The notes: generated from the letters alone by a model not told the origin. Counted from the first letter of the stretch, positions 17,882-36,146 are shown. The stretch: DNA of 64,000 nucleotides from a phage (GCA_011884725.1 GCA_011884725.1_3919.1), one strand, 5' to 3'. Translations and numbers: made by a program.

Positions 17882-17886
17882 AGTGT

Positions 17887-19170: not shown

Positions 19171-19719
19171 ATGAAGAAATTGATTCTAGGCTTGTGCTTA
19201 ATGTTTACAGCACACTTATCTTATGCAGTTGACTGCCCAGAGCTATCAATTAGCCAAAAAGTTAACATGTTAAAAGCTTACCAGTATGGTGAGAATAATA
19301 TGGGGAAAGGCTGGGGTATTACTCTAGCAGCTATAGCCTTACAAGAGTCAGAGTTAGGTCTGAAGGTAGAGAATAAAAAGACCCACGACTATGGTATTTT
19401 CCAGAATCACTTGAAGACTGTTGTAAAGCGTAACAAAATTAGTCCTAATGTGGCTAAAAAGAAACTCTTAAAAGATTTTGACTATGCAGCAAAAGAGACA
19501 CATAAAGAGCTTGAGTTTTGGACTAAGGTACATGGTCACCCGAAGTCAAAGAAGACTTTACAAAAAGTTTTAGCATCATATAATGCTGGGTATTCGTACA
19601 AAATCCCTAAAGCTAAGAAATACTCTCAAGATGTCTATAACAATATGAAAGTTATCGCTCAATGTGAATTTGCAACAAACATTTCTAAGGTAAATCATGA
19701 AAAAATTAAGAAAGTCTGA
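19171..19719 (+). CDS. secreted protein, possible lytic transglycosylase (SLT-like)
   Basis: Signal-peptide-like MKKLILGLCLMFTAHLSYA; LQESELG...YGIFQN resembles the SLT catalytic E-S...GLMQ pattern; promoter-like TGTATAAT upstream. Confidence 0.4.
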   Translation: MKKLILGLCLMFTAHLSYAVDCPELSISQKVNMLKAYQYGENNMGKGWGITLAAIALQESELGLKVENKKTHDYGIFQNHLKTVVKRNKISPNVAKKKLLKDFDYAAKETHKELEFWTKVHGHPKSKKTLQKVLASYNAGYSYKIPKAKKYSQDVYNNMKVIAQCEFATNISKVNHEKIKKV

Positions 19720-20392
19720 TGAAGTCCTGTGCCATGCTTATGACTTGCATCCTCATGAGTTAGGTCTTGATTCCTGTGTATGGACTCCAGAACAGTGCAG
19801 GGATTTTGAAGACACTGCAAGAGAAGTTGTATGTTCACTTGAAGAGTTCCACACATCAGAGCCAATTGTGAATGTTGTAGATAAAGCGACTGGACAAACT
19901 ATAGGTGTAAGGCGTGACAGCTTAGTCATAGTCAATAGAGACCTTGTAGAAAAAGGTAACCTTATCTTAGCAGACATTGATGGTGTTCTTACAAATTTTA
20001 ATCACGAAGATTACTCAACAGAATTGATTGATGGGTCATTTTCACAGTACACTAATTTGCTTGACTCTGTAAGTGCAAAGCCAACGTATGTTTTCAATAT
20101 CATTGATGCAATTGCTAATCATGCTGCCATTGGACTCTTGACAGCTAGAGGTGAATCTCAGAGAATACCTACTGAGATGTTTTTAAGGCATAACATAGAG
20201 CATGATTACATGCTTTTTATGCGTGGTTTTGGAACTAACTCTATAAGTGCAGAAAGTTTAAAAGTGAGGATGATTCAGTCTTGCATTCTTCCTTATTTTA
20301 ATATAGTATGCTTTATAGAAGATACAGAGAAGAATGTTCAGAAGGTAAACAGAATCCTTCCACACATTAAAACCATGTTAGTTAAACATTGA
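19697..20392 (+). CDS. HAD-superfamily phosphatase-like protein
   Basis: ILADIDGVLTNF matches HAD motif I (DxDGT/V). Confidence 0.45.
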   Translation: MKKLRKSDEVLCHAYDLHPHELGLDSCVWTPEQCRDFEDTAREVVCSLEEFHTSEPIVNVVDKATGQTIGVRRDSLVIVNRDLVEKGNLILADIDGVLTNFNHEDYSTELIDGSFSQYTNLLDSVSAKPTYVFNIIDAIANHAAIGLLTARGESQRIPTEMFLRHNIEHDYMLFMRGFGTNSISAESLKVRMIQSCILPYFNIVCFIEDTEKNVQKVNRILPHIKTMLVKH

Positions 20393-20403
20393 GAGAAAAA
20401 CTT

Positions 20404-20868
20404 ATGAACAATATCATTACGGTAGCACTGGACGATACGGCAAACAAATCTGAAGTAGTTCGTAAAATGATTCAAGGTAACTTTGAAGGTAAAATTTTCC
20501 GTGCTGTTAATGTAAAAGCTGATGGCAGTATTCGTGAATACCGTGCATTGTTGAATGTTAAAAAGCACGTAAAAGGTGCTGGTTCAACGACTGCACACAA
20601 AGAAAACCTGATGACTATCTATGATATGGGTAAGGCTTCAGAGTTAGGTGCTGAAGGTATCGTTAAAGAAGGTGCTCCGTATCGCTCTTTCAATCTGGAA
20701 ACTACTCTTATGCTTTCCTTTACGAGTGGTTCTAAAACAATCACTTATCTCTTTACTGATGCTGCAACGGTATCTGCTATTAAGGATAGCACTGTCAAAG
20801 CTGGCGTAGTTGCTGCTGCAAAAGCTTCTTCGATGGCTGCAAATATCCTTGCTAAAGTCCTCGGTTAA
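20404..20868 (+). CDS. hypothetical protein
   Basis: ATG 20404 (track start 20389 is a TTG); followed by terminator 20891-20911. Confidence 0.5.
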   Translation: MNNIITVALDDTANKSEVVRKMIQGNFEGKIFRAVNVKADGSIREYRALLNVKKHVKGAGSTTAHKENLMTIYDMGKASELGAEGIVKEGAPYRSFNLETTLMLSFTSGSKTITYLFTDAATVSAIKDSTVKAGVVAAAKASSMAANILAKVLG

Positions 20869-20890
20869 GGTTAAGATACAGGCTCCTTCG

Positions 20891-20911
20891 GGAGCCTTTT
20901 TCATTTCAGGA
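20891..20911 (+). terminator. rho-independent terminator GGCTCC-TTCG-GGAGCC + TTTTT
   Basis: Direct read. Confidence 0.7.
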
Positions 20912-20920
20912 GATTGTTAA

Positions 20921-21268
20921 ATGACATTTAAAGAGTTCTGTCAAGCTACTTTCATAATTGTTTTCTTAGTTGGGGCAGGTGTCTGGGGAGGATACTCTTA
21001 CAGAGACTACCAAGTTGCTGAAGCTGAGTTAAGCAATGAGAAACTAATAAGTGTTGCTAAAGATGCTTATCAGGAAGGTTTAGCCACACTGAGCACCAAT
21101 TACAAAAATGATTTGAAAGATGTGCTTGCTAAGAATAAGCATACAAAAGAGGTACTAACATATGAAAAAACTAAGCCAGAGTTTTATAATGTTTGTGTTA
21201 CTGATAATTATGTCAGGGTGTTCAACGAACAAAGTGAACAGTACATTCAAAAACTCCCAAGTAAGTGA
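20921..21268 (+). CDS. possible i-spanin (Rz-like): N-terminal TM then coiled-coil
   Basis: AGGAGA upstream; N-terminal hydrophobic segment FIIVFLVGAGVWGG then charged helical region; an embedded lipoprotein ORF overlaps its 3' end in another frame. Confidence 0.4.
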   Translation: MTFKEFCQATFIIVFLVGAGVWGGYSYRDYQVAEAELSNEKLISVAKDAYQEGLATLSTNYKNDLKDVLAKNKHTKEVLTYEKTKPEFYNVCVTDNYVRVFNEQSEQYIQKLPSK

Positions 21269-21431
21269 GAGTGACAAGTACACTCAAGAAGAGTCAAGAT
21301 TCACTGTCAAAGGTAATACTGGTAGTGATGTGGCAGCAGCCCTTGAGTTTTATCGTGATGGTTTTTACCAGTGCACAATCAAAGCTAATAACCTTATTGA
21401 TATGATTTTATTAGGAAATAAACAGCAATGA
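21162..21431 (+). CDS. possible o-spanin (Rz1-like) lipoprotein
   Basis: MKKLSQSFIMFVLLIIMSGC lipobox-like signal; starts inside the preceding ORF in a different frame (overlapped spanin architecture). Confidence 0.4.
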   Translation: MKKLSQSFIMFVLLIIMSGCSTNKVNSTFKNSQVSESDKYTQEESRFTVKGNTGSDVAAALEFYRDGFYQCTIKANNLIDMILLGNKQQ

Positions 21432-21697
21432 CAGAGAATGAAGATACTTTTTACGTAGAGGGTTACTTACTGTTACCACGACCAAAAGAAACTTATATGC
21501 GAATTGACTTCTTACCAACCATTATGGATAATGTGATGTGTCATATCTTTATGCAAGGTGTCACAGCACAGCTTAAGCACGTTGGTAAAGAGTGCAAAAT
21601 AAAGGTTGACACTCATCCAGAAATCAAAGAGAATCACTACACATGGTTCTTACCAGACTCTAAAGAAATCTTAGCAGTTCTCAAAACGAGGAAATGA
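21428..21697 (+). CDS. hypothetical protein
   Basis: ORF track. Confidence 0.45.
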   Translation: MTENEDTFYVEGYLLLPRPKETYMRIDFLPTIMDNVMCHIFMQGVTAQLKHVGKECKIKVDTHPEIKENHYTWFLPDSKEILAVLKTRK

Positions 21698-22008
21698 TTA
21701 TGCAATTCCAGCCAACAAATCGTGGATTTTCTTATGCAGAATTTAAAGATGCTAAAGGGGAAATTTGTACTTTACAAGAGAGTTCATCATATGAACCATG
21801 TATTTGGTTAGGTGCTAAAGAGGTCTCTGTTCAGTACCTAGATGGTGGCTGGAAAACACTTGATATCCCAGCATTAGTAGGCAAAGATTTTGTAGGTAAC
21901 CAAAGAATGAAACTCAACCAAGAACAGGTGAAAGAGTTATTGCCATACCTTCAGTACTTTGCTGAAAATGGTGAATTACCAACAGAGGAACTTACAAATG
22001 CAGATTAA
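21694..22008 (+). CDS. hypothetical protein
   Basis: ORF track; GAGGAA upstream. Confidence 0.5.
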   Translation: MIMQFQPTNRGFSYAEFKDAKGEICTLQESSSYEPCIWLGAKEVSVQYLDGGWKTLDIPALVGKDFVGNQRMKLNQEQVKELLPYLQYFAENGELPTEELTNAD

Positions 22009-22324
22009 TGGAAGAGACTTTGTAGCCGTTTACTACGAGAAAGATAAAGAAGTTGGCGTAGCACAAGTATCTTATGGTAATGGTAAGTGGTTGTATGGGA
22101 CAATCGCAGTAGTCGGAACAAGAAGTGATACAAAAACTTTTAAAGATTGTGTTGACCTTCTTGAAGAATCCATCCACAATCATTGGTGTCTGATATGGAT
22201 GACTGACAACGAAGTGATAGAACGCTTCAAAAAGATTGGTATCAACATTGATAGTATTGAGCATGTTGATTTATATGAGCTAACTGAGAAGGTAAACTAT
22301 GAAAGTAATACTAGCCAGAGATAA
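21998..22324 (+). CDS. hypothetical protein
   Basis: ATG 21998 with AGAGG upstream (track start 21959 is a TTG). Confidence 0.45.
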   Translation: MQINGRDFVAVYYEKDKEVGVAQVSYGNGKWLYGTIAVVGTRSDTKTFKDCVDLLEESIHNHWCLIWMTDNEVIERFKKIGINIDSIEHVDLYELTEKVNYESNTSQR

Positions 22325-22532
22325 AAAGACACGTAAGATTGTAAGTTCAGCAGTATTCAAAGGGAGACATGAAGTCGTCCCGTTTACAGGAGAAGATGTG
22401 TTAACTTACAAGAAGGTGATGAAACGTGAGTGCAGTAACCATTTCCGTGACTTCTTCTCTGAACCATTAGGAGACTTTAAAAGTCGCTGTGGTAAAGGCA
22501 TCATCACTCAAGAGGTAATTATTCATGGCTGA
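22299..22532 (+). CDS. hypothetical protein
   Basis: ORF track. Confidence 0.45.
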   Translation: MKVILARDKKTRKIVSSAVFKGRHEVVPFTGEDVLTYKKVMKRECSNHFRDFFSEPLGDFKSRCGKGIITQEVIIHG

Positions 22533-22686
22533 CTTCTGCAAAGACTGTGCTATCGAAATGTTCGGACGTGATACAGGTGACTTAAAAGGTCTTATCACTG
22601 AAGATGACTTTAAAGCTGGCTATGCAATGCCAGTAATCTGTGAAGGTTGTGGATGTATCTGGGTAGACCATGAGGGCAACGTGTAA
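22525..22686 (+). CDS. hypothetical small Cys-rich protein (53 aa, below ORF-track cutoff)
   Basis: ATG 22525; MADFCKDCAIEMFGR...VICEGCGCIW; stop 22684-22686. Confidence 0.35.
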   Translation: MADFCKDCAIEMFGRDTGDLKGLITEDDFKAGYAMPVICEGCGCIWVDHEGNV

Positions 22687-22724
22687 AACCTTCAGAAGAT
22701 AAAGAATCTTGGGAGAGATGTTAA

Positions 22725-23504: not shown

Positions 23505-23537
23505 TTAGTGCTTCACAGCACCTATAATTAATCTAAG

Positions 23538-23584: not shown

Positions 23585-23830
23585 ATTTTCAATTTGTGCA
23601 GGTAGCTGTATAGGTCTGCACAGGTGTCTCAAAAAATCTCATCGCCGGATAGAAAAATCATTTTCAAAACGTGCAGACTCCGCTCAGGTCGGGCAAGAAA
23701 AATCATTTTAGAATTGTGCAGGTAGGTTTTTATGGGGAGCCAGACCAACCCCTCTCCCCCTATTACTCCCCCTCTCCCCAAAAGTCAAGAGAAAAATTTG
23801 TAGCGGATTGAAAAATAATTCTTGATTTGT
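23580..23830 (+). repeat. four degenerate direct repeats (about 25 bp, ATTTT(C/A)AA...TGTGCAG core) plus CT-rich tract CCCCTCTCCCCCTATTACTCCCCCTCTCCCC
   Basis: Copies read at about 23583, 23653, 23697, 23807; only a probable antisense ORF here. Confidence 0.55.
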
Positions 23831-23932: not shown

Positions 23933-23992
23933 CATCAACGGGGAGGGAATGACCTTCCCCACTAAATAAAGTCCTAAACTGGAGATTCAAAA
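23933..23992 (+). repeat. type-A intergenic cassette: hairpin GGGGAGGGAATGACCTTCCCC plus conserved leader ...TAAAGTCCTAAACTGGAGATTCAAAA-ATG
   Basis: Direct read; hairpin 23940-23960; same cassette recurs at 25501-25552, 26352-26416, 27571-27640, 28712-28779 and degenerate at 29041-29109. Confidence 0.8.
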
Positions 23993-24376
23993 ATGGCATA
24001 CCGTGCACCTAAATTCATCAACAAAGACAACTTTCGCAACGCACTGGAGAAGTCACTTGATGAGAATTTTAAAGGTAACGTTATTGTTGTTCACTCATTT
24101 AATTTCAAGTATGATATCAATGGGAATAAAATCAACCATTACACGGCAACAATGCTAGATGGTACTCTTTCAAGTGAAAAAGCCATTTTACATGCACTTG
24201 CTGGACGTGGTAAAAACCTGATAAGATGCGATAAGAGACGTTATCAGGGTGGCGCATATGGTTACGATGATGCTGTTTATCATCTTGAAAATATGGGCTA
24301 TCAAGTAGAAAAAGCTGGAGTGTCTCAAATAATTGGTAGTGATGGTTACGTAACTATCTTCAAAATTAACAAATAA
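23993..24376 (+). CDS. hypothetical small protein (array gene 1)
   Basis: ORF track; conserved type-A cassette and GGAG-N9-ATG upstream. Confidence 0.55.
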   Translation: MAYRAPKFINKDNFRNALEKSLDENFKGNVIVVHSFNFKYDINGNKINHYTATMLDGTLSSEKAILHALAGRGKNLIRCDKRRYQGGAYGYDDAVYHLENMGYQVEKAGVSQIIGSDGYVTIFKINK

Positions 24377-24461
24377 AGTACTTTACAGGGGGCTTATAGT
24401 TCGATAAAGTAAGCCCCAGATAAAGAGCTTTACCACTAAATCCTAAATTGGAGATTCAAAA
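24377..24461 (+). repeat. type-B intergenic cassette: AAGTACTTTACA, hairpin GGGGCTTA...TAAGCCCC, then AGATAAAGAGCTTTACCACTAAATCCTAAA(C/T)TGGAGATTCAAAA-ATG
   Basis: Direct read; hairpin 24388-24417; recurs at 24757-24840, 25824-25910, 26619-26707 with variable loop sequence. Confidence 0.8.
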
Positions 24462-24752
24462 ATGGCTACTATCAAAAACGTTGTAATCCCTGTAAAAACT
24501 CGTGATGACGCTCGCATCATGGCGAAAAAGTTAGGCGGGAAAGTGGTTGACAACGGAAAACAATCTGCTGTAAGATGGGGTGTGAAGGCTGATAAACAGT
24601 TGAAGTTAAAAAATTCACCAATAAATCTTTTTACATGTGTAAACACTATCGGAAAGACAAATGTATACACGAAAAAGGCATATATTAGACGCGTAGCCTT
24701 AACATCTCCAACTCGTACAATGAGAAGTCATGCAAAGCTGAAAATTAACTGA
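24462..24752 (+). CDS. hypothetical small protein (array gene 2)
   Basis: ORF track; type-B cassette and GGAG leader upstream. Confidence 0.55.
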   Translation: MATIKNVVIPVKTRDDARIMAKKLGGKVVDNGKQSAVRWGVKADKQLKLKNSPINLFTCVNTIGKTNVYTKKAYIRRVALTSPTRTMRSHAKLKIN

Positions 24753-24840
24753 TAAAGTACTTTACAAGGGGCTTAAAAGTTGATACCTTAAGCCCCAGAT
24801 AAAGAGCTTTACCACTAAATCCTAAACTGGAGATTCAAAA

Positions 24841-25137
24841 ATGAAATTATCAAATAAAGTTCGTGAAAATCTAAGCAAATTACTCAACAAAATTGATTTC
24901 ATTGAAACATCAAGAAATAGCCATGATGTTATGGAATGGTTACACGGCAAAATAAAAGGTCGTCGTGTAGTGATTTGCTTATGGAATAGTTGCAGGGAGT
25001 ATAAAAAACCTGTATTGCAAGTCAATATCTATGATGATAATCTTAAAAGTCCTGTCAAATCTAAAAGCGATTTACTAGATTCTTATGAGATAACTGTAAA
25101 TGGCAAAGTGTCACGTAAAGAGGAAGCACCATGTTAA
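24841..25137 (+). CDS. hypothetical small protein (array gene 3)
   Basis: ORF track; type-B cassette upstream. Confidence 0.55.
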   Translation: MKLSNKVRENLSKLLNKIDFIETSRNSHDVMEWLHGKIKGRRVVICLWNSCREYKKPVLQVNIYDDNLKSPVKSKSDLLDSYEITVNGKVSRKEEAPC

Positions 25138-25463
25138 TGACTGGTATCACTGCAATCATTGCCATTTTCGCGCTCTATAAGGCATATAAAGCCTATAATC
25201 TAGCAAATAAGGCAATCACACAACAGGTTAGTAATAGCCTTGTAATGAGCTTTCTAGAGCGGTTGAGCGATGAACAATTAAAGCGGTTAGAAATGAGCTT
25301 CAGATTCAGGGCGAGAACTTATCAAATCAGCGACATTTTCAAAGATGATTTTCAATTAGTCGATGATTATAATTCTCTGATAAATGCTTTAAATATTAGT
25401 GACTTAAAAGACTATCATACTGTAATTGTTCAAGAGTTGAGCAAACGAAAACAAAACTGTTGA
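25131..25463 (+). CDS. hypothetical small membrane protein (array gene 4)
   Basis: ORF track; start overlaps upstream gene; hydrophobic N-terminus. Confidence 0.45.
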   Translation: MLMTGITAIIAIFALYKAYKAYNLANKAITQQVSNSLVMSFLERLSDEQLKRLEMSFRFRARTYQISDIFKDDFQLVDDYNSLINALNISDLKDYHTVIVQELSKRKQNC

Positions 25464-25488
25464 CACTGATTTTTAGATAGATTAAATT
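25460..25488 (+). promoter_or_regulatory. sigma70-like promoter TTGACA-17-TAAATT inside type-A cassette
   Basis: Hexamers read directly; an identical roughly 60 bp segment including this promoter recurs at 26324-26352. Confidence 0.5.
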
Positions 25489-25552
25489 ACACATCAACGG
25501 GGAGGGAATGACCTTCCCCACTAAGTAAAGTCCTTAAACTAGGAGATTCAAA

Positions 25553-25825
25553 ATGTATACTACTAACAACGGTCGCACTTTAAATGTCACTCTACGTCAC
25601 TATGTCGACGGTGTGATGCACTTTGAGGATTTACAGGCTGAGCAACATATCTTAAATTGGCAAGTCGCAGGACTCCAAAAAACTGCTACCGGATACGGCA
25701 AAAAGATTCCAACTAGCTGGAAAGTTCACTATGAAGGCCGTTTGCGCAGAATTTATCAGGATGTATGTAACAATAGCACATCAAGTTACATCATAGTAAA
25801 AGGTAAAAAACTGCATTTAGTATAA
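25553..25825 (+). CDS. hypothetical small protein (array gene 5)
   Basis: ORF track; type-A cassette with TTGACA-17-TAAATT promoter upstream. Confidence 0.55.
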   Translation: MYTTNNGRTLNVTLRHYVDGVMHFEDLQAEQHILNWQVAGLQKTATGYGKKIPTSWKVHYEGRLRRIYQDVCNNSTSSYIIVKGKKLHLV

Positions 25826-25910
25826 AGTACTTTACAGGGGGCTTATTAGTCTGTACAGTAAGCCCCAGATAAAGAGCTTTACCACTCAATCCTAAATTGG
25901 AGATTCTAAA

Positions 25911-26315
25911 ATGACTATTAATAATCGTGAGTTGTCAATCTTAAAAGCACGTTTAACCGTTAATCGAATCAATGTTATTACATCATCAGCACCGGATGAA
26001 ACATTGCACAACATTATCGGAAAGATTCAAAGCGTTATCTTAGACGTTGAAAACGTAAAAAACTCATTGGCTGACGTTGCAGCAGGTATCACGCTAGACG
26101 GTGCACAATATGAAATGGCCGACATGTTAGGCAAATCTAAGGTAATGAATAAAGAGTTAGACTTGAAAATGTTTAGATTTGCCGTGAAAGTGTGGCTATC
26201 TGTTGAGTATGATGCTAATTTTGCAATCGCTGATTTCTTTGCCACTTGGTTACAACGTAATTTGGCAAATCATGACTTTCGTGACATCTGCGACGCAATT
26301 TATGCAGAACTCTAA
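25911..26315 (+). CDS. hypothetical small protein (array gene 6)
   Basis: ORF track; type-B cassette upstream. Confidence 0.55.
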   Translation: MTINNRELSILKARLTVNRINVITSSAPDETLHNIIGKIQSVILDVENVKNSLADVAAGITLDGAQYEMADMLGKSKVMNKELDLKMFRFAVKVWLSVEYDANFAIADFFATWLQRNLANHDFRDICDAIYAEL

Positions 26316-26323
26316 AAATTTTA

Positions 26324-26352
26324 TTGACACTGATTTTTAGATAGATTAAATT
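26324..26352 (+). promoter_or_regulatory. sigma70-like promoter TTGACA-17-TAAATT (second copy)
   Basis: Same sequence as 25460-25488. Confidence 0.5.
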
Positions 26353-26416
26353 ACACATCAACGGGGAGGGAATGACCTTCCCCACTAAGTAAAGTCCTTA
26401 AACTAGGAGATTCAAA

Positions 26417-26614
26417 ATGGCTATTATCAACGGTTTAACCATTGAAACCACGCACATCAAAGACATTAAAGTTGGTGATGTAGTTCTTTCCCACGGCGTA
26501 GAAAAAACAGTCACTGCAAAGGGTATCAAAGATGATTCTTTCATGGGTAGAACTCTCTTCGGTGATTCTTATTGCTTAGGTTATCTTGCAGTTTTAAAAG
26601 TTGTCAAAAATTAA
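26417..26614 (+). CDS. hypothetical small protein (array gene 7)
   Basis: ORF track; type-A cassette with promoter upstream. Confidence 0.5.
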   Translation: MAIINGLTIETTHIKDIKVGDVVLSHGVEKTVTAKGIKDDSFMGRTLFGDSYCLGYLAVLKVVKN

Positions 26615-26707
26615 CTGATAAAGTACTTTACAAGGGGTTTATAGTTCGATAAAGTAAGCCCCAGATAAAGAGCTTTACCACTAAATCCTTAAACTAGGAG
26701 ATTCAAA

Positions 26708-27250
26708 ATGAAATGCTTTCACGGTACTACTCAAGAAAACTTTATCAACCTGATTAATAACGGTGATAAACCATCAGGTGTATGGAATTGTTCGGATATG
26801 GACGGCAATTTTTACGTGTACCCAGAAAATAAACTCTATGGTGATGATGAGGAAGAGATAGCATCGGAAGGTATCCAGCAAGCTCTAGGAAATGCCACTA
26901 TCACGGCAGCTTTTCAGATGAAAACTCAAAATATTGTTATCTTAGAACTTGACATTCCAGAGGATGAGCTAAATGATGATTATTCTTGTGATAACATGTC
27001 AAATATAGCAAGCTTTACAGAGTACTTTGATGTAAATTGGATTAAAAAGGTCTATACAACAGAGTTCAACGCTATGTATTCACCTTTTTGTCTCCCTTCA
27101 CTGGATAACCCAAATTTAAATTATCTTGATGAAACATTGGAGCTACTTGCTAAAAGTATCCAACAATCCGACAGTATTCAGGTTTTTTGTGACATCATGG
27201 ATACACTGACAGAAAACATTGTAGAGAGTGATTTAAAGGTCTTTTTCTAA
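26708..27250 (+). CDS. hypothetical acidic protein (array gene 8)
   Basis: ORF track; type-B cassette upstream. Confidence 0.55.
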   Translation: MKCFHGTTQENFINLINNGDKPSGVWNCSDMDGNFYVYPENKLYGDDEEEIASEGIQQALGNATITAAFQMKTQNIVILELDIPEDELNDDYSCDNMSNIASFTEYFDVNWIKKVYTTEFNAMYSPFCLPSLDNPNLNYLDETLELLAKSIQQSDSIQVFCDIMDTLTENIVESDLKVFF

Positions 27251-27316
27251 AAACCTATACATTCACCTTATAAACACTGATTAACCCCTTACAGGGGCTT
27301 TTAGAGGGCTTAAATC

Positions 27317-27550
27317 ATGCTTACAACCATTTATCTCATCCTTTCTATCTGTAGCGGTCATTCATGTGACTTTAAAGGGCTTGAAGAGTTTACAGGAAGT
27401 AAAGAAAATGCTATTCAGGTTTGCCAGATAGCAAGACAAGACTATCCCGCCAGTGATGATATACAATGCTACTTTAAGACAGAAGATGAAGAAGGAATCT
27501 ATTTCGACAGTGTTGATGGTCAATATGAAATTATCATTGAAAAAGACTAG
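27317..27550 (+). CDS. hypothetical small protein (array gene 9)
   Basis: ORF track; short hairpin 27285-27297 upstream. Confidence 0.45.
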   Translation: MLTTIYLILSICSGHSCDFKGLEEFTGSKENAIQVCQIARQDYPASDDIQCYFKTEDEEGIYFDSVDGQYEIIIEKD

Positions 27551-27640
27551 ACAAGCCTGATAAAAGTCTGTAAATTACACATCAACGGGGAGGGAATGAC
27601 CTTCCCCACTAAATAAAGTCCTAAACTGGAGATTCTAAAA

Positions 27641-27982
27641 ATGGCTTATGTAACCGTAATTACTGATAAAGAGAATTCATCTTGGTCAACTCAGGTTAGT
27701 GACAAGATGTCACCTATGCAGTGCCTAAAATACTTTGAGCAGTGGAATAAAGGCGAGGATGTAAGCCCATTTCAAGTGATGCAGGTTATCCATGTAGATA
27801 ACGAAGGGAATAAAACGGTTTTAAATAGTGAGTACTACGCAAGCCGTTTTGAAACTAGAAGTAAAACAATGAAGCTTTTACGTGAATCCGGTTATGCCCA
27901 TATCGCCGCGCTAATCTGGGATGACCTGCTAAAAAGTCAGCGTATCAGCTATGTAAAACCTGAAAAAATATTCATCAGTTAA
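27641..27982 (+). CDS. hypothetical small protein (array gene 10)
   Basis: ORF track; type-A cassette upstream. Confidence 0.55.
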   Translation: MAYVTVITDKENSSWSTQVSDKMSPMQCLKYFEQWNKGEDVSPFQVMQVIHVDNEGNKTVLNSEYYASRFETRSKTMKLLRESGYAHIAALIWDDLLKSQRISYVKPEKIFIS

Positions 27983-28014
27983 TCAATAACTTATAAAAAA
28001 CTTTTAAAAAAGTG

Positions 28015-28043
28015 TTGACAACACCCCTTGACAATAGTACATT
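28015..28043 (+). promoter_or_regulatory. sigma70-like promoter TTGACA-17-TACATT with A-rich upstream tract; second TTGACA 13 bp downstream
   Basis: Direct read: AAAAAAGTGTTGACAACACCCCTTGACAATAGTACATT. Confidence 0.4.
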
Positions 28044-28183
28044 TGTTCGAGGGGGTTTATCTAAAAGGGATTCACTTAAAAGATTCTTTATAGATAAACT
28101 TAAAAAATTGCTTGCAATCATCTTCCAAAAACTTTATAGTTTATCTCAAGCAATAATGCTTTCCTAAACTGGAGATTCAAAAA

Positions 28184-28714
28184 ATGAACAAGTTCAAAGC
28201 TATCAACTACATTCGCTCAAATAGTGTCATGTCTAAGCCTGTTAAGGATACCTACGAATTCCGTTGCAATGGTGAACACTTTGCTACCATCACCAAATCA
28301 AACAACGGGGCTTATTATATCCATCGTCGTAATGTTTCTACGGTTGTAGTTTCTAACTTTATGCAAGCTGTAGCGGAACTCCTCCCGCTCTTCTTAGAAA
28401 AGTATGCCGTACAGTGTGAAAGTGTTCGTGAATGCACTAAAACAGTGTTAAACGGTTATCGTATGGCTTACGAGCGCTCTTTAAAGAATCTCAATAAATA
28501 CTACAAAGCACCGGAAGGCACTTCATCCACAGCCTACGGGGTAGGGGGCTTCAATGTCAGCCTTTACGAAGTGGAAGAAATCGAGCTTTATGACCATCGC
28601 CCAAATGGTTACGCTAAGACACTGGGAGAGGGGTTAATGCTGAATATCAAGAACTTAGAAAAAACTTTAAGAGAAATTGAAAAAGATATTGACGAGACAA
28701 TCAAAAGTCTGTAA
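28184..28714 (+). CDS. hypothetical protein (array gene 11)
   Basis: ORF track; tandem TTGACA promoters at 28015-28043 and the conserved leader upstream. Confidence 0.55.
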   Translation: MNKFKAINYIRSNSVMSKPVKDTYEFRCNGEHFATITKSNNGAYYIHRRNVSTVVVSNFMQAVAELLPLFLEKYAVQCESVRECTKTVLNGYRMAYERSLKNLNKYYKAPEGTSSTAYGVGGFNVSLYEVEEIELYDHRPNGYAKTLGEGLMLNIKNLEKTLREIEKDIDETIKSL

Positions 28715-28779
28715 ATTATCAATCAACGGGGAGGGAATAACCTTCCCCACTAAGTAAAGTCCTAAACTGGAGATTCAAA

Positions 28780-29043
28780 ATGGAACACGTAGAACTGACC
28801 ACACTCTTACAAATCGCAACCGACAAGGAAGACGTAGCATTATTTCACCGTATAGAGAGTGATTTGTTCAATGGTGAAATCATCAAAGAATCTTACGAAG
28901 TTGTCGGATTCAAAGATGGTAAAGCATTTGGCTTTTTTGACCTCGACAAAAGCAAAGCGGTTACAAAGTACGATGTTCTATCTTGTGAGATTCTTACAAA
29001 ATACAACGAAAAAAGGCTTGCAACCTACGCCAACATGCAGTAA
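28780..29043 (+). CDS. hypothetical small protein (array gene 12)
   Basis: ORF track; type-A cassette upstream. Confidence 0.55.
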   Translation: MEHVELTTLLQIATDKEDVALFHRIESDLFNGEIIKESYEVVGFKDGKAFGFFDLDKSKAVTKYDVLSCEILTKYNEKRLATYANMQ

Positions 29044-29109
29044 ATTACTAATCAACGGGGAGGGATGACCTCCCTACTAAACAAAGTCCTAAACTGGAGA
29101 ATCTAAATT

Positions 29110-29358: not shown

Positions 29359-29368
29359 TCGACGCAGC

Positions 29369-30992: not shown

Positions 30993-31022
30993 AAAAAGCC
31001 CCCGATTAAGGAGGCTCTTAAG
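30993..31022 (-). terminator. minus-strand terminator-like hairpin GAGCCTCC-TTAATC-GGGGGCTT + TTTTT
   Basis: Reverse complement read; downstream of the last leftward gene. Confidence 0.45.
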
Positions 31023-31027
31023 ATATT

Positions 31028-31576
31028 TTAAATCAGTGTTTCCAGAACTGTTTTCAATGATGACTTGGTTGTCTGATAAAAATGAGTAAATCCATTGTTA
31101 TTATCGAATACCTGCATCATGATATCATCTCCCTTGATTGGGTACACTCGGATATCATAGTGAAAACCATTAAAGACACAAGAACCACTACAGAATGCTC
31201 TAAAGTCATCTACTGAGATATACTCTTCATGACCTGTGATTTTTATACAAACGCCTTTACTCGGTCTCTTAGGGTTGATATCTTCCATCACAGACATACT
31301 CTGTCCACCAAGAGATACCATAGTGACCACTTTACGGTTCTTCTGTTTAAAGTACATCTTAACTTTCTGCAAAGTGTCTTCATAGAATGGATAAGACCTT
31401 TCTACAAAGATTCCTTCAAGTGGCTCTTTACCATTTTCAACTTCTCGGTTATGCCGTACTGCAAAGATAATTTGTTCGAACCAGTCAAGATTTTCTTCGG
31501 AGAGTGCTTCCCGAACATCCTTCCAGTCAAGTACTAAGTAGTTACCTTCAACTTCTTTTAAGTTATCTTTTTCCAT
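31028..31576 (-). CDS. hypothetical protein
   Basis: ORF track frame; start set to internal ATG 31576 (GGTG 8 nt upstream), which avoids a 62 bp overlap; track start 31651 is also possible. Confidence 0.4.
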   Translation of the reverse strand: MEKDNLKEVEGNYLVLDWKDVREALSEENLDWFEQIIFAVRHNREVENGKEPLEGIFVERSYPFYEDTLQKVKMYFKQKNRKVVTMVSLGGQSMSVMEDINPKRPSKGVCIKITGHEEYISVDDFRAFCSGSCVFNGFHYDIRVYPIKGDDIMMQVFDNNNGFTHFYQTTKSSLKTVLETLI

Positions 31577-31589
31577 ATCTATCACACCA

Positions 31590-32054
31590 TTATCGTAAAA
31601 CTTGATATTCTGGTACTGCGAATTTATTACTATTGTTCTTGATGAGGTCATCCTCTGAAACTAAAAATGTAATCCCACATAAGTGTCTGTAACGACTATC
31701 ATACTCGAATATCTTAAACAGATATTTACCATCATGATAAACCTGTTGCACTTCACCTTCTGCAACAGTCTCGCCTGTAATAAAATTTTTTAGTTTATAC
31801 ACATTACCAACTTTAGGTACTGTTTTCATCTCAGGCTCTTTTAGTGCTACACCTATTTTTGCATCACCGAGTAAATGAGAACTCTCAAAAGCTACGTGTT
31901 TCATATAAGCTTCTGAGCATTCCCAAATAAAACAATGTACAAGAACCTTAGCAGCATGTCTTGAGCAGTTCAACTTATCACAAATTTCTGTGTACATCTC
32001 ATCTTTAGTAGAATTGTCAAGCATTGCTCTTTGCACTACTTCTTTAATTTTCAT
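31590..32054 (-). CDS. hypothetical protein
   Basis: ORF track. Confidence 0.45.
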   Translation of the reverse strand: MKIKEVVQRAMLDNSTKDEMYTEICDKLNCSRHAAKVLVHCFIWECSEAYMKHVAFESSHLLGDAKIGVALKEPEMKTVPKVGNVYKLKNFITGETVAEGEVQQVYHDGKYLFKIFEYDSRYRHLCGITFLVSEDDLIKNNSNKFAVPEYQVLR

Positions 32055-32472
32055 AAGCTCTCCGAATAACCCTATTAAGCATCTCTAAAGTCAGCTTTCC
32101 AGACTCTAAATGTGGCATAACAAGCTTTAAAGCTTTTTCAACATCATGCACAACATCTATTATACCTTCTTCATAGGCTTCTACAAGGATATCTTTTACG
32201 TTTTGTTGGTTATCTTTTTGTGGTATTGCTAGACGCATATCAAACTCATTTGCTTGAGGGTGGTCACTACCATGCCAGTAACCATCTTTGTTAAAGCTGA
32301 TGTAGTCACCGTGGTAAAAGTGTACACCATTAGCTTTAAACTTCTCCAGCACAAGGCATTGAATTGGGTATTCAGTATTCCACTCCCTGACTCCTATAAC
32401 CTTCACTGTTGCGATGTACTCCTGTGTTTTTGCATCTACGATGTCAAGTTCTTGACCAGCTATGATTTGCAT
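32044..32472 (-). CDS. hypothetical protein
   Basis: ORF track. Confidence 0.45.
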   Translation of the reverse strand: MQIIAGQELDIVDAKTQEYIATVKVIGVREWNTEYPIQCLVLEKFKANGVHFYHGDYISFNKDGYWHGSDHPQANEFDMRLAIPQKDNQQNVKDILVEAYEEGIIDVVHDVEKALKLVMPHLESGKLTLEMLNRVIRRAYEN

Positions 32473-32526
32473 ATTCTCTACCTTCTAAGTTTCTACAAAG
32501 GGGCTATCAAGTAACCCCTCAAGTTA

Positions 32527-32751
32527 TTACTCAGACTTTTCAGTCTTCTTGTCGGATTTCTTACTAGTCTTCTTCTCAGCTTTCTGTTCAGGCTCCTTCT
32601 CAGAAGTTGCCTTAATAACCATATCAAGAAGCTCTGATAAGTCACTCTTCAGTAAAGTAACAGGCTGCTCATTGTAGAAGTTTTTGTCAAGATAGACTTT
32701 GAACTCTTCAATAGATGGAAATCCAAAAATTGGTACAGGTGTCTTAGTCAT
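32527..32751 (-). CDS. hypothetical small protein with Lys-rich C-terminus
   Basis: ORF track. Confidence 0.4.
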   Translation of the reverse strand: MTKTPVPIFGFPSIEEFKVYLDKNFYNEQPVTLLKSDLSELLDMVIKATSEKEPEQKAEKKTSKKSDKKTEKSE

Positions 32752-32827
32752 TACTTAGTTTCTCCATAAGCATCTTTCAAGATTGCCTTGTTAATCATTT
32801 CAGCGATTGCAAAACGAACACATACAG

Positions 32828-33331
32828 CTATAATTGTAGGTTGCATTCTTTACTTACCTCTTCAAGTTTAACCTCAGAGTCCTTAAGTCGTTTCTTATGA
32901 ACTCTGAATCTCATTAGTGAGATGATGATACCAACTAAAGGGACAGCATACAAGTACCAAACATCATATACCTTTGCAGTAATCTGTGTAATTGTCAAAT
33001 CTTGAGCTATGCAGCTAATTGCTGATACTGCCAGTAGCATTGCTAAGAAGAACGCCAGTACCATAACAATACTTAGGCATCCTCTAGCATGGTGTTCATG
33101 CTTAATGCACTTATTCTTTTCGTCAACAACCCTGTTGTAGTCATTTGTAAAGTCTCTGTAGAAAGCTTTCAAGTATTCTTGAGTGTAGCCTTCAAAGCAA
33201 CCTGTACCATACCAATAATCACCACCGAAATGTGCTATGATACCAGTATCTCCATTTGGTTTGGTTACTTTCAAAGAAGTATGATGGCGAGTGTCCTGAT
33301 AATCTATCTTATATCTTTCTTCGTAAATCAT
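32828..33331 (-). CDS. hypothetical membrane protein
   Basis: ORF track; internal hydrophobic stretch LSIVMVLAFFLAMLLAVSAISCIA. Confidence 0.45.
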   Translation of the reverse strand: MIYEERYKIDYQDTRHHTSLKVTKPNGDTGIIAHFGGDYWYGTGCFEGYTQEYLKAFYRDFTNDYNRVVDEKNKCIKHEHHARGCLSIVMVLAFFLAMLLAVSAISCIAQDLTITQITAKVYDVWYLYAVPLVGIIISLMRFRVHKKRLKDSEVKLEEVSKECNLQL

Positions 33332-33546
33332 TTTTCAATCCCTCTCAATCGTTTGTTCCACTCAAGGTCAACAAGTCTTTGCAGGACTTTCCCTCTAGGT
33401 GTTACACCTTTTAAATCTGCATTGTAACAATGGTAAAAATCACCTTCAGTATGTCTACCATAGCATTTTCTGATGTTCTGACTTCTACGATACTGCTCTA
33501 ATAGGGACAGTTTGTAGTAATCTTCAACTGTAGTTAGTTTTTTCAT
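33328..33546 (-). CDS. hypothetical protein
   Basis: ORF track; 4 bp overlap with downstream gene. Confidence 0.4.
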   Translation of the reverse strand: MKKLTTVEDYYKLSLLEQYRRSQNIRKCYGRHTEGDFYHCYNADLKGVTPRGKVLQRLVDLEWNKRLRGIEK

Positions 33547-33629
33547 TCTTTCACCACGTATCTTCTCAAGAAACTAAAAAGGGAACTACCTCTCGATAGC
33601 TCCCATCATAGTTAATGTTGTATATTCGG

Positions 33630-34211
33630 TCAAGAGTATTTTTTAGGCAGTAATGCACTGCGCTTATTGCTCTCTTCACTCAATAGTGCGATAAATTCAT
33701 CACCTTTACCCTTCCACGGGCTGAATGTCGGAATGTGCTCTCTGATAGCATCAATCACTGTTTTAAGGGCGTTGTTCTTTAACCACCAATCAGATACCGC
33801 TGAAGCTACAATGTAGTAAGCACCGTCATCTGTGAAGATTGGCTCAGAGATACATGGCGAAATCATAGTGGTAATGATAGAACCATTATTCATGTAGTAT
33901 GTTCTTTTTTCAACCTTATCAAGAAGCTTATGAAGGTCTGCAAAGAGACTCACCACCTCTTTATGGTCAATATCTTTTTCAAGATTTGCTCTATATTTCA
34001 ATAGTGCAGCATCGACCTCTTTGTCATTGAATTTGAAGTATTGAACTTCTTCATTCACACATACACTGATGTTGTTGGTGTTTATCGTCAATTTGCACAG
34101 TTTGACTGGAGAGTTAATGTTGGTCTGAAAAAGTGCTACACAGCCTTCTACATTCCCGAAATGTTTGACTAATGTAACTTCTGGTTGGATGTGCTCATGT
34201 TCTTCTGACAT
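33630..34211 (-). CDS. hypothetical protein
   Basis: ORF track. Confidence 0.45.
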   Translation of the reverse strand: MSEEHEHIQPEVTLVKHFGNVEGCVALFQTNINSPVKLCKLTINTNNISVCVNEEVQYFKFNDKEVDAALLKYRANLEKDIDHKEVVSLFADLHKLLDKVEKRTYYMNNGSIITTMISPCISEPIFTDDGAYYIVASAVSDWWLKNNALKTVIDAIREHIPTFSPWKGKGDEFIALLSEESNKRSALLPKKYS

Positions 34212-34555
34212 TATAGTTTCCTCATTAAATACTTTTTAAGTTGTGTGTTAGGTTTCTCAAAAACTTCTATAGAAGATATTTTGACAGATTCACCACGCAT
34301 ACCAGTATGTTTGAATATATAGTACTCTAACATCCCTATGTACTTTGCTGGTAAGTCATGCTTGACATACACCGTTACAGAATCTTCAAATTCAACGACC
34401 TTTGTACCATCTTTGTAGTTAAACTCTTTAGGATGGTCGTAGTTATCGATATCGTACATTAAAAAGAGTCTTTTACGTTGTAAGTCAAGCTTATTTGTTA
34501 AAGACTCTTTGATATCTGAGAAGTTTTTGTACACTGTGACATGGAGCTTACTCAT
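34211..34555 (-). CDS. hypothetical protein
   Basis: ORF track; 1 bp overlap with neighbour. Confidence 0.45.
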   Translation of the reverse strand: MSKLHVTVYKNFSDIKESLTNKLDLQRKRLFLMYDIDNYDHPKEFNYKDGTKVVEFEDSVTVYVKHDLPAKYIGMLEYYIFKHTGMRGESVKISSIEVFEKPNTQLKKYLMRKL

Positions 34556-34841
34556 CGTTAAACTCTCTGACGAAGAAATAGTTGACTTTGTTATTACCTA
34601 CCATAAGGTCAAAGCAGGTATTTTCAAAAGGTTTGTTGTAGGCATCATATGAAACATATGGGTCAGCTACTTGCTTAGTGCTTAACTTCTTACTTGATGG
34701 GTTTAAGAGGCCACCATACAGCTTCTTGATAGCCTCTTCTACAACAGACCAGATAATTTCGTCAGTAATTTCTTCGTACAGGTCAAGTTCACGCTCTAGT
34801 GAGAAGTCACAAATAGGGAAAATAACCTGTACTTTACTCAT
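34548..34841 (-). CDS. hypothetical protein
   Basis: ORF track. Confidence 0.45.
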   Translation of the reverse strand: MSKVQVIFPICDFSLERELDLYEEITDEIIWSVVEEAIKKLYGGLLNPSSKKLSTKQVADPYVSYDAYNKPFENTCFDLMVGNNKVNYFFVREFNDE

Positions 34842-35239
34842 TAACGAATCACCTGTGAGACTTGAATTGCTTCAGTTACTGACAAGTCACCTACTTTCTC
34901 TTCTTTGATAAAGGTGAAGGTAAGTTCAACAGGCTCTCGCTCTTCTTGCTCAACTGGAACACCATTAAGCTCATCAAAGATTGATTGGGTTGTCCAATCT
35001 TCACCACCATCTGGGTAGTGGATTGCGTAAAGAGGGAACTCCCTGTCAAACCAACCAAATACAGGACAACCATCTTCATCATCTCGTACTCGATGAAGTG
35101 TGCTTCCAGACCCTGTAAACTGAAGGAATAAATCTCCGTTGCACTTGTATATTACTGCATCGGCAAAACCTATATCTTCTCGACCATCATAGCCAAACGT
35201 GTCAACTTTTACTTGGATATCTCTAACATCTTTATTCAT
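34841..35239 (-). CDS. hypothetical protein
   Basis: ORF track. Confidence 0.45.
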   Translation of the reverse strand: MNKDVRDIQVKVDTFGYDGREDIGFADAVIYKCNGDLFLQFTGSGSTLHRVRDDEDGCPVFGWFDREFPLYAIHYPDGGEDWTTQSIFDELNGVPVEQEEREPVELTFTFIKEEKVGDLSVTEAIQVSQVIR

Positions 35240-35630
35240 AAAAACCTCTCTCTGCTTGTTCGATTTTTGCTCTTAAAGTTTCGCAATGATGTAGATGGTA
35301 GTTAGCTTCTTGTTCATGTGTTGCTAACTGCCTTTCAAGAACAGTTTTATAGTAACCTGCAAGTTGCTCTTTTGTCAATGGGTGCTCTGAAATAATATCA
35401 AGTCCACTTTCACCAAGAGGATTGAATTGTCCATGCTCATTGACATTGTAAGTCTCAAACTTGAACATACCATTGTTCACAGACTCAATAGGTGACAGTT
35501 CAACAAGCTCTACAGTAAACCGTGTATACACCTTGTCGCCTCTTGAAACTACATTGTTTCCAATGATGCGTACAAGCGAACCATTACGAGTGTATTTAAA
35601 AGTCCCAAAATCACTAGCCCAAAGCTTCAT
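35232..35630 (-). CDS. hypothetical protein
   Basis: ORF track. Confidence 0.45.
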   Translation of the reverse strand: MKLWASDFGTFKYTRNGSLVRIIGNNVVSRGDKVYTRFTVELVELSPIESVNNGMFKFETYNVNEHGQFNPLGESGLDIISEHPLTKEQLAGYYKTVLERQLATHEQEANYHLHHCETLRAKIEQAERGFYE

Positions 35631-35649
35631 AGTTTTCTCCTTAGAAAAT

Positions 35650-35671
35650 AAAAAAGGCTCCCGAAGGAGCC
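35650..35671 (-). terminator. minus-strand rho-independent terminator GGCTCC-TTCG-GGAGCC + U-run (plus strand shows AAAAAA-GGCTCCCGAAGGAGCC)
   Basis: Direct read just downstream of the lysozyme gene on the minus strand. Confidence 0.65.
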
Positions 35672-35681
35672 TATGAAGATA

Positions 35682-36146
35682 TTACTTTGGATATACACTG
35701 TCAAGATAAATGTCAGCTTCCATTCTACGTCTATTTTTCAAGCCGTTTGAAGTTACCTTCTTACCTTTGACTGTAATCTTGTTCCACCACTGCATAGCTT
35801 CTGCACAACCTACCTTATTACCAGCATTGTGGCGCTTGATAAATGTAGAGTCCTGCATAGCTGTGATACCGATGTTATATGTTTCACTTACAAGTGCATC
35901 GAACTCATTCTGAGAAGTTGGAGCCTTGATAGCTTTGTTCACTGCTGCAACAAACTTTTCAACATCTGCGAGAAGATACTGTTCAGCTTGTTCAGCCGTG
36001 ATTTTCATACCCATCTTAACAGGTTTCCCGTCAATACGGATTGTACCATACCCGATTGTTGGGATTCCGGCAGAGTCTTCGTAAGCCTCTAACTCCAGAC
36101 CTTCGAAGAACTTAATAGCGTCTAAACCTTTTCTTGAGAGTTGCAT
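35682..36146 (-). CDS. endolysin, T4 e-type lysozyme (glycoside hydrolase family 24)
   Basis: 154 aa; FEGLELEAYEDSAGIPTIGYGT matches the catalytic Glu/Asp/Thr region of T4 lysozyme; minus-strand terminator immediately downstream. Confidence 0.8.
   Translation of the reverse strand: MQLSRKGLDAIKFFEGLELEAYEDSAGIPTIGYGTIRIDGKPVKMGMKITAEQAEQYLLADVEKFVAAVNKAIKAPTSQNEFDALVSETYNIGITAMQDSTFIKRHNAGNKVGCAEAMQWWNKITVKGKKVTSNGLKNRRRMEADIYLDSVYPK

Follow-up and report, generated by a model that had tools for sequence, protein, structure and literature searches.

The lysis genes of bacteriophage T4 (e, t, rI, rIII and pseT.3/pseT.2) are dispersed, with no lysis cassette, and scattered lysis genes are already in print for phages Felix O1, Moogle and Meda. 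Several components of these systems have been described. The spanin database SpaninDB lists the Felix01 pair as 'ovl', frame +1, overlap 107, with subunits of 115/89 aa (Kongari et al., 2018); its Felix O1 i-spanin has no predicted coiled coil, and ~66% of the periplasmic domain is predicted to be helical. LysF1, the endolysin of the E. coli O157 phage FAHEc1, has been characterized both biochemically and structurally: its catalytic residues were assigned as Glu15, Asp24 and Thr30, it is devoid of a signal or SAR segment, and it is only ~20% identical to T4 gpe (PMC8228626). Finally, the Vs.1 family of T4 (PHROG 600) is represented in T4-like phages, Ackermannviridae, Ounavirinae and marine myoviruses, and a marginal Pfam SLT match was reported for T4 Vs.1 itself in 2006. 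In the searchable literature we found no functional test of Vs.1-like proteins, of any holin candidate of the group or of Felix O1-type spanins, lambda Rz/Rz1 complementation included.

The window, that is the whole stretch of DNA analysed (64 kb), derives from a Felixounavirus, a Felix O1-type myovirus whose DNA is 97-98% identical by megablast to that of the E. coli phages KEP1, DE17 and Pr103Blw. The features relevant to lysis are collected in Table 1. In Felixounavirus relatives the annotated gene order is rIIA, rIIB, hypothetical, polynucleotide kinase (PNK), hypothetical, i-spanin/o-spanin, while the endolysin ORF lies 14.25 kb off the spanin pair and on the opposite strand. An earlier note on this DNA had described the lysis functions as dispersed and not grouped in a cassette, and this description holds, all four features being present where they had been placed; the scattered layout is real, yet it has previously been published in the Felix O1 group and is nothing new for it. 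The resemblance to T4 goes beyond the lack of a cassette, since both phages possess rIIA and rIIB and in both the spanin pair is one small ORF away from the PNK gene. PNK and spanins nevertheless stand in the opposite order, and the T4 spanins are separate genes, whereas those of the window phage overlap. No homologue of T4 T or RI was recognised. The label 'lysis inhibitors' carried by the rIIA and rIIB homologues is given by analogy with T4.

Table 1. Lysis-related features, candidate holins and regulatory elements, by position in the window.
Position	Strand	Feature	Evidence or match
6179..6385	+	small membrane ORF, 68 aa, two TMDs, basic C-terminal tail	Felix O1 ORF116, published holin candidate
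9165..9508	+	small membrane ORFs 9165-9332 (55 aa) and 9308-9508 (66 aa), which overlap	Felix O1 ORF118 and ORF119, published holin candidates
15310..15486	+	58-aa ORF, N-terminal TMD, then DnaJ-type CxxCxGxG zinc-finger	Felix O1 ORF131, published holin candidate
15515..19070	+	rIIA (15515-17881) and rIIB (17961-19070) homologues, directly upstream of SLT-like gene	phrog_609 at 3e-89
19084..19107	+	intrinsic terminator after rIIB: 10-bp stem, UUCG loop, T-run	-14.7 kcal/mol, z = -3.8
19171..19719	+	Vs.1-like putative secreted GH23/SLT-type lytic transglycosylase, 182 aa, predicted Sec signal peptide residues 1-20	phrog_600, motifs, AlphaFold2 model
20880..20897	+	intrinsic terminator hairpin directly upstream of i-spanin ribosome-binding site	-14.0 kcal/mol, z = -5.0; AYO145A annotation
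20921..21268	+	i-spanin, 115 aa, N-terminal TMD ~residues 6-27, periplasmic domain, single invariant Cys92	phrog_1152, SpaninDB Felix01 OIS, alignment A4
21162..21431	+	o-spanin, 89 aa, lipobox MSGC (Cys20), Ser at +2, 70-aa mature part, invariant Cys71	SpaninDB, alignments, Moogle o-spanin
25131..25463	+	110-aa ORF, one N-terminal hydrophobic segment	phrog_4375, function not assigned
32828..33331	-	167-aa protein, soluble N-terminal part, two C-terminal TMDs, charged tail; unlisted holin candidate	phrog_4343
35682..36146	-	soluble T4L-like (GH24) endolysin, LysF1 orthologue	PF00959, PDB 7M5I, catalytic triad

The assignment of the endolysin to the T4 lysozyme type, made in the earlier note, is confirmed by the Pfam family Phage_lysozyme (PF00959, 137.3 bits, cut-off 22.3, E = 4e-40) and by LysF1 (PDB 7M5I), to which it is ~98% identical over all 154 residues with three substitutions (phmmer, 3.8e-99). 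The translation contains Glu15-x8-Asp24-x5-Thr30, in agreement with the GH24 pattern Glu-x8-Asp/Cys-x5-Thr and identical to the LysF1 triad. Moreover, as in LysF1, a signal or SAR segment is lacking, no hydrophobic segment having passed the TM scan, so that the enzyme would depend on a holin. The start codon overlaps the stop codon of an upstream Ig-repeat gene (TAATG).

The two ORFs at 20921 and 21162 are, on the basis of sequence comparison, the known two-component spanin of Felix O1, already listed in SpaninDB. The i-spanin matches phrog_1152, 'Rz-like spanin', at 9e-42 and differs from the SpaninDB Felix O1 protein at only a few residues; its Kyte-Doolittle profile has a 19-residue maximum of 1.75 at residues 6-24, the remainder being hydrophilic. 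The o-spanin, preceded by an AAGAGG Shine-Dalgarno sequence, begins with MKKLSQSFIMFVLLIIMSGC20-S, in which MKK and a hydrophobic core are followed by the lipobox M-S-G-C20 and a serine. Signal peptides and lipoproteins were called by simple rules combined with conservation; for the lipobox the rule was [ILMFTV][^REKD][GAS]C with no Asp at +2 (no inner-membrane retention), and the o-spanin conforms to both parts. Each mature subunit has one invariant periplasmic cysteine (C92 in the i-spanin, C71 in the o-spanin), the two being candidates for intermolecular disulfides. The pair coincides with that of Felix O1, wV8 and Moogle in lengths, frame, overlap, TMD, lipobox and cysteine pattern, with no material difference, and PHROG 1152, the SpaninDB entry and the conserved lipobox and cysteines substantiate its earlier recognition as a spanin pair. 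The architecture proposed at that time requires two amendments. A TM ORF and a lipoprotein ORF in two frames are indeed present, but the o-spanin gene, in the +1 frame, shares only 107 nt with the i-spanin gene and extends 163 nt beyond its stop codon, so that in the published nomenclature the pair is 'overlapped' and not 'embedded'; the geometry of the Moogle o-spanin is identical. The coiled coil attributed to the i-spanin is at odds with SpaninDB, in which the Felix O1 protein is listed with none predicted. The family also departs from lambda Rz/Rz1, as it is overlapped instead of embedded and its mature o-spanin is without proline, and no homology to T4 PseT.3/PseT.2 was detectable.

It might be objected that 21162-21431 is a chance ORF within and beyond the 20921 gene and not a lipoprotein gene, given that several GenBank records either contain a shorter ORF starting after the lipobox or leave this frame 'hypothetical'. 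Such shortened starts correspond, however, to a bias of gene callers that Kongari et al. have described, and the same overlapped lipoprotein ORF is found in Mooglevirus, Suspvirus, Kolesnikvirus, LPML1 and a Gordonclarkvirinae podovirus. The full frame, start, Shine-Dalgarno sequence, lipobox and two cysteines are kept where the proteins are only ~30% identical, and the lipidated cysteine, the serine next to it and the second cysteine are invariant across 6-7 lineages. A chance ORF is therefore extremely improbable, conservation having effectively refuted it.

The product of the gene that follows rIIB belongs to the Vs.1 family, matching phrog_600 at 1.3e-57 over residues 1-170; tblastn recovers RB14 vs.1 at 4e-9 (31.6% identity) and 44RR2.8t vs.1 at 7e-11, and alignment A2 agrees with this placement. 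The Pfam SLT match is, as for T4 Vs.1, marginal (18.8 bits, under the gathering cut-off of 21.3; E = 0.0012). In alignments of 15 and 9 sequences the SLT motifs E59-S60, G75..Q78 and Y137-N-A-G140 are invariant or nearly so: E59, Q78, N138 and G140 show no variation in either alignment, Y137 shows none in alignment A1, and S60 and G75 are nearly invariant. The AlphaFold2 model (pLDDT 84.6) predicts the goose-lysozyme-like alpha-helical GH23/SLT fold, and Foldseek against a viral library retrieves Vs.1-sized SLT proteins at TM 0.7-0.8. By inspection, the N-terminus consists of MKK, LILGLCLMFTAHL and SYA followed by VD, with n-, h- and c-regions, Ser at -3 and Ala at -1, and a hydrophobic segment is present at this end in every homologue aligned. 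T4 Vs.1 shares the length, the signal-like N-terminus and the Glu-Ser, G..Q and YN.G motifs. Cys22 and Cys165 are both present or both absent in most homologues; the Ounavirinae and Ackermannviridae branch has the pair, whereas T4-type Vs.1 is without it, and its occurrence in the predicted mature protein fits a periplasmic location. The gene neighbourhood also differs, vs.1 of the T4-type phage RB14 being placed between regB and vs. Vs.1 homology, SLT motifs and signal pattern agree with the SLT-like, signal-peptide-bearing protein of the earlier note; its listing among 'lysis functions' is a further step, by which a homologue of T4 Vs.1 would be assigned a part in lysis.

What the analysis shows directly is the gene identities, motifs, fold and conservation; export and timing, the choice of holin and any part that the SLT-like protein plays in lysis are inferred. 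Very probably the whole amounts to the canonical three-step lysis of Gram-negative hosts, with genes scattered as in T4 and an accessory role for the SLT-like protein. The GH24 muramidase, expressed from the leftward block with its translation coupled to that of the preceding gene, would build up in the cytoplasm until a holin, for which the usual candidate in the group is the Moogle gp54 / Felix O1 gp79 homologue, opens the inner membrane. After removal of the murein, the overlapped spanin pair would fuse inner and outer membranes, the i-spanin being anchored in the former and the lipoprotein o-spanin presumably sorted to the latter because of its Ser at +2. The SLT-like gene would have a sigma-70-like promoter to itself, shortly downstream of rIIB. 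Its product would be exported by Sec and probably disulfide-bonded in the periplasm, where, as a small lytic transglycosylase of GH23/SLT fold, it would cleave or remodel murein from that side, most likely as an accessory to the endolysin and not as the main endolysin.

Two other roles for the SLT-like protein have to be weighed. It could be a true second endolysin with a signal peptide, exported early by Sec, inactive in the energised envelope and freed by holin depolarisation, on the model of Lys44 of fOg44 and of the SP-SLT endolysin of Campylobacter phage F352. The protein is in fact built like F352 Lys, with ~185 aa, a signal peptide that looks cleavable and a catalytic domain of SLT type, and for F352 Lys a requirement for both Sec and a holin was demonstrated (Zampara et al., 2020); the catalytic residues of the SLT-like protein are strictly conserved, and an orthologue is already called 'lysin' in some GenBank/UniRef records. 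We nonetheless regard this role as doubtful. No sequence relationship to F352 Lys is detectable beyond the signal peptide, and F352 has no other endolysin, whereas the window phage already has a complete cytoplasmic one of the biochemically active LysF1 type, as likewise does T4, which also carries Vs.1. Furthermore, the gene lies within the rII/PNK block and follows a sigma-70-like promoter, a position that suggests early and not late expression. A role as a 'specialised' lytic transglycosylase, opening or remodelling murein locally during infection and unrelated to terminal lysis, deserves more credit, although we would still not favour it. The size and signal peptide recall that class, and homologues, which occur in >2,000 phage records, are conserved in large virulent phages also having ordinary endolysins; EtgA, the F352 endolysin and the SLT-like protein are all small, Sec-exported (as predicted for the last) enzymes of GH23/SLT fold. 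The match to EtgA is marginal, however, and the housekeeping transglycosylases MltF, Slt70, MltC and MltE are equal or better by fold. Assembly of an envelope-spanning complex, adaptation of the sacculus or interference with superinfecting phages would be possible purposes of such an enzyme. An accessory to the endolysin remains our preferred description of the SLT-like protein.

The holin presents a comparable choice. As the earlier note had stated, the window contains no confident holin: Pfam, PHROGs and NCBIfam recognised no homologue of any holin family in its 64 kb. The 'putative holin' usual in the group, homologous to Moogle gp54 / Felix O1 gp79, is likewise absent from the window and maps ~6 kb past the right end, beside a tail-fibre gene. 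Homologues are found in 297 Ounavirinae records, many of them annotated 'holin', and the protein combines one TMD at the N-terminus with a helical domain in the periplasm; this topology and the annotations of others are what makes it the candidate. Alternatively, the real holin could be one of the membrane ORFs in the window (6179, 9165, 9308, 15310, 25131 or 32828-33331). ORF116/118/119/131 were listed as possible holins by Whichard et al. (2010), and the authors of the Meda study chose not to designate one. The ORF at 6179-6385 has a classical class-II look, with its two TMDs and basic tail, and the gene at 32828-33331, for which relatives carry no annotation other than 'membrane protein', shares the leftward block with the endolysin gene and is kept in every one of these relatives. 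On the other hand, none of these candidates matches any holin family, those at 6179, 9165, 9308 and 15310 sit in a nucleotide-metabolism block, and annotators naming a holin in the Felix O1 group chose the gp54 homologue. The build of 15310-15486 is atypical for a holin, as this ORF carries a zinc-finger, and we know of no holin that contains one. Among the three candidates previously suggested from this DNA, those at 9308 and 15310 stand as candidates in that they correspond to ORF119 and ORF131, proposed in 2010, and fall short in matching no holin family, while for the one at 25131 nothing further was found in support. On balance a holin encoded in the window appears rather unlikely, and the gp54/gp79 homologue is retained for the inner-membrane step.

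With regard to expression, the hairpin that precedes the i-spanin leaves no room for a promoter, so that the spanins are probably expressed by read-through of this terminator. A strong terminator right before the spanin genes was counted as a point against the overall lysis scheme. The promoter that feeds the SLT-like gene, with TATAAT at 19134-19139, is preceded by the rIIB terminator, and both elements are also annotated in AYO145A.

The lysis genes of this phage are dispersed and form no cassette, a layout that the earlier note had described and that is in print for Felix O1-like phages. More than 250 phage genomes were matched by positions 19000-22000 and 31000-38700 of the window in megablast searches, the best being 97-98% identical; nearly all matches of the window belong to Felixounavirus or related Ounavirinae, and its gene order is that of annotated relatives. 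Downstream of rIIB are found a 182-aa hypothetical protein (the SLT-like protein), a polynucleotide kinase (PNK), a hypothetical protein, the i-spanin/o-spanin pair, small ORFs and a macro-domain protein, while the endolysin lies within a leftward block (31-38.7 kb), beyond which come 26 clustered tRNA genes and then structural genes. For Felix O1, 22 tRNAs are given in its genome paper. The finding is already known, the absence of a lysis cassette in Felix O1-like phages having been described since 2010: Felix O1 was reported to be without a holin-lysin cassette (Whichard et al., 2010), the Moogle announcement has the lysis proteins "scattered around the genome", like those of Felix O1-like phages, and the Meda announcement reports lysis genes likewise scattered and a holin not identified. 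The elements of the window are orthologues of genes that have been catalogued (SpaninDB), crystallised (LysF1, 7M5I) or mentioned in genome papers. They illustrate, without solving them, two old gaps: the holin of Felix O1-type phages, never demonstrated by experiment, and the Vs.1-type, putatively secreted transglycosylase, present in more than 2,000 phage records, T4-type phages (RB14, 44RR2.8t) included, for which no functional test was found in the literature.

Features of the lysis genes and their surroundings in the window
Feature	Position	Strand	Remarks
Felix O1 ORF116 equivalent	start 6179	+	synteny
202-aa ORF	8535-9143	+	between nrdD and ORF118 homologue
Felix O1 ORF118 equivalent	start 9165	+	synteny
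Felix O1 ORF119 equivalent	start 9308	+	synteny
Felix O1 ORF131 homologue	15310-15486	+	synteny; 58 aa; last gene ahead of rIIA
rIIA	15515-17881	+	same order in annotated relatives
rIIB	17961-19070	+	same order in annotated relatives
Promoter-like motif	19118-19139; 23593-23614	+	
SLT-like protein	19171-19719	+	182 aa
i-spanin	20921-21268	+	115 aa, N-terminal TMD
o-spanin	21162-21431	+	89 aa, +1 frame, lipobox MSGC
Intergenic cassettes (8)	23956-29107	+	~100 nt each
Genes preceded by cassette	starts 23993, 24841, 25553, 26417, 27641, 28184, 28780, 29110	+	
Endolysin	35682-36146	-	
Ig-repeat protein	region 36146-37647	-	377 aa, three Ig-like repeats
tRNA genes (26)	40939-46117	+	

All four features previously noticed, namely the SLT-like protein, the spanin pair, the lysozyme and the lack of a recognised holin, were recovered at their positions, and the interpretation given to them was largely right, needing three corrections, on the spanin class, the part of the SLT-like protein in lysis and the position of the holin. 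The endolysin was correctly named as a T4 lysozyme homologue: it matches Pfam Phage_lysozyme (4e-40) and is ~98% identical over its full length to PDB 7M5I, the structure of LysF1, a T4L-like muramidase of phage FAHEc1 that has been characterised biochemically and has a Glu15/Asp24/Thr30 triad and no SAR segment (PMC8228626). The ATG of the endolysin gene and the stop codon of the Ig-repeat gene upstream overlap (TAATG). Over its N-terminal ~100 residues, that Ig-repeat protein has a paralogue in the next gene, 37276-37647 (37% identity, 9e-17).

As to the spanins, the pair stands, but it is not "embedded": the two genes, each with a Shine-Dalgarno sequence ahead, overlap by 107 nt and the o-spanin gene extends 163 nt beyond the i-spanin gene, which places them in the "overlapped" class, as opposed to the lambda-type "embedded" one, in the nomenclature of Summer and Kongari. 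Felix01, wV8, FO1a and Moogle are entered in SpaninDB with identical geometry (ovl, +1, overlap 107, 115/89 aa); for the Felix O1 i-spanin, no coiled coil is predicted there and ~66% of the periplasmic domain is predicted to be helical. The N-terminus of the o-spanin, MKKLSQSFIMFVLLIIMSGC, contains the lipobox, with Ser at +2. That its frame is a chance ORF was examined with the locus of Moogle, EcSzw-2, LPML1, two Kolesnikviruses and the podovirus IME267, and was ruled out: the same overlapped lipoprotein ORF occurs in all six of these lineages, whose o-spanins, at ~30% identity, retain the lipidated Cys, the Ser that follows and one further Cys. In the i-spanins one Cys is retained, inside a conserved EK.TKP.F.N.C..D.Y..FN motif. 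A PNK gene, one small ORF and a spanin pair adjoin both at 19697-21431 (+) of the window and at 134002-135781 of T4 (NC_000866; pseT, pseT.1, pseT.2, pseT.3), in reversed order in T4. The homology of the spanins to T4 PseT.3/PseT.2 that this common neighbourhood suggested was not detectable, since hhalign matched nothing beyond the TMD and the lipobox. GU169904 (Staphylococcus phage SA1) and OK283618 (Listeria phage LPML1) carry Ounavirinae sequence, the lipoprotein o-spanin included, despite their Gram-positive host labels; these labels, or the assemblies, look doubtful.

The SLT-like protein scores 18.8 bits against Pfam SLT, just under the threshold of 21.3, and matches PHROG 600 ("unknown function") at 1e-57. 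Its relatives, found by tblastn in 2,129 phage records, include vs.1 of RB14 and 44RR2.8t, Ackermannviridae, and phages of Aeromonas, Vibrio and Pseudoalteromonas; this makes it a homologue of T4 Vs.1, and a putative secreted lytic transglycosylase of this type is conserved from T4 through Felix O1 to Vi1-like phages. A literature search on the function of T4 vs.1 or of a Felixounavirus transglycosylase returned only the marginal SLT similarity reported for T4 Vs.1 in 2006. In two alignments E59, Q78, N138, G140 and Y151 are invariant, S60 and G75 nearly so, and one homologue, from an Aeromonas phage, has Phe in place of Y137. Moreover, an N-terminal hydrophobic segment is present in every homologue aligned, and Cys22 and Cys165 are together present or together absent in most, a pattern compatible with a periplasmic disulfide. 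The description as an SLT-like protein with a predicted signal peptide holds; its part in lysis is putative. A SAR-endolysin reading was rejected by inspection, the h-region being rich in Leu/Ile/Phe and followed by an AxA-like cleavage site.

In the best-supported picture, lysis would follow the canonical pathway of holin, soluble endolysin and two-component spanin, with genes dispersed as in T4, and the Vs.1-like transglycosylase would be a Sec-exported accessory enzyme. By analogy with F352 Lys, the experimentally demonstrated signal-peptide SLT endolysin of Campylobacter phage F352, it may aid lysis as an SP-endolysin; against this, no relation between the two proteins was detectable, hhalign and BLASTP aligning their signal peptides only, so that F352 Lys is kept as a possible functional analogue and not as a homologue. 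With the Campylobacter coli homologue P0020 as tblastn query, no Campylobacter phage was among the matches listed, the best being a Cobetia phage. Alternatively, the transglycosylase may have some other periplasmic role. That the accessory enzyme is a murein cutter positioned in the periplasm beforehand, as a partner of the spanin/holin system, is a rather unlikely proposal; were it true, the enzyme could, for example, speed the collapse of the sacculus or open the mesh for spanin complexes, and large virulent myoviruses would attack the wall with two muralytic enzymes, one on each side of the inner membrane.

No holin was identified in the window, as had been stated: Pfam, PHROGs and NCBIfam recognised none, and the candidates gave no informative match, 15310 alone showing a weak similarity to the DnaJ zinc-finger. 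Five possible holins were listed for Felix O1 by Whichard et al. (2010), gp79, gp116, gp118, gp119 and gp131. Synteny with Felix O1, as recorded in its database entry, equates 9308 with ORF119 and 15310 with ORF131, and therefore two of the three earlier candidates (9308, 15310 and 25131) repeat this list. The group's annotated holin candidate, the homologue of Moogle gp54, is absent. This candidate, a protein of 124 aa with a single TMD at the N-terminus and a periplasmic domain that is helical, is encoded adjacent to the tail-fibre gene; homologues, in many cases labelled "holin", are found in 297 Ounavirinae records. By tblastn, no homologue of this "putative holin" or of gp55 was found in the window, and coordinates taken from DE17, a close relative, place the gp54 homologue ~6 kb past its right end; the likely holin is thus outside the window. 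In the product of 15310, a transmembrane segment at the N-terminus precedes a zinc-finger of the DnaJ CxxCxGxG type, which matches TIGR02349 weakly. The 202-aa ORF may be a mobile homing-endonuclease insertion; Felix O1 is without a gene there.

Concerning transcription, a strong terminator follows rIIB, then a sigma-70-like -10 element and the SLT-like gene, as annotated likewise (terminator and promoter) in the AYO145A record; a second strong terminator stands directly ahead of the spanin genes. The promoter-like motif TTTGTGCAG-N3-GCTGTATA(AT), one copy of which lies upstream of the SLT-like gene, has two matches against 0.02 expected, and may mark one temporal promoter class. Furthermore, an intergenic cassette precedes each of eight small genes and consists of a hairpin, CAACGGGGAGGGA...TCCCCAC, then a conserved leader, AAAGTCCTAAACTGGAGATTCAAAA, then the ATG. 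A terminator/leader/RBS module seems to have been reused here.
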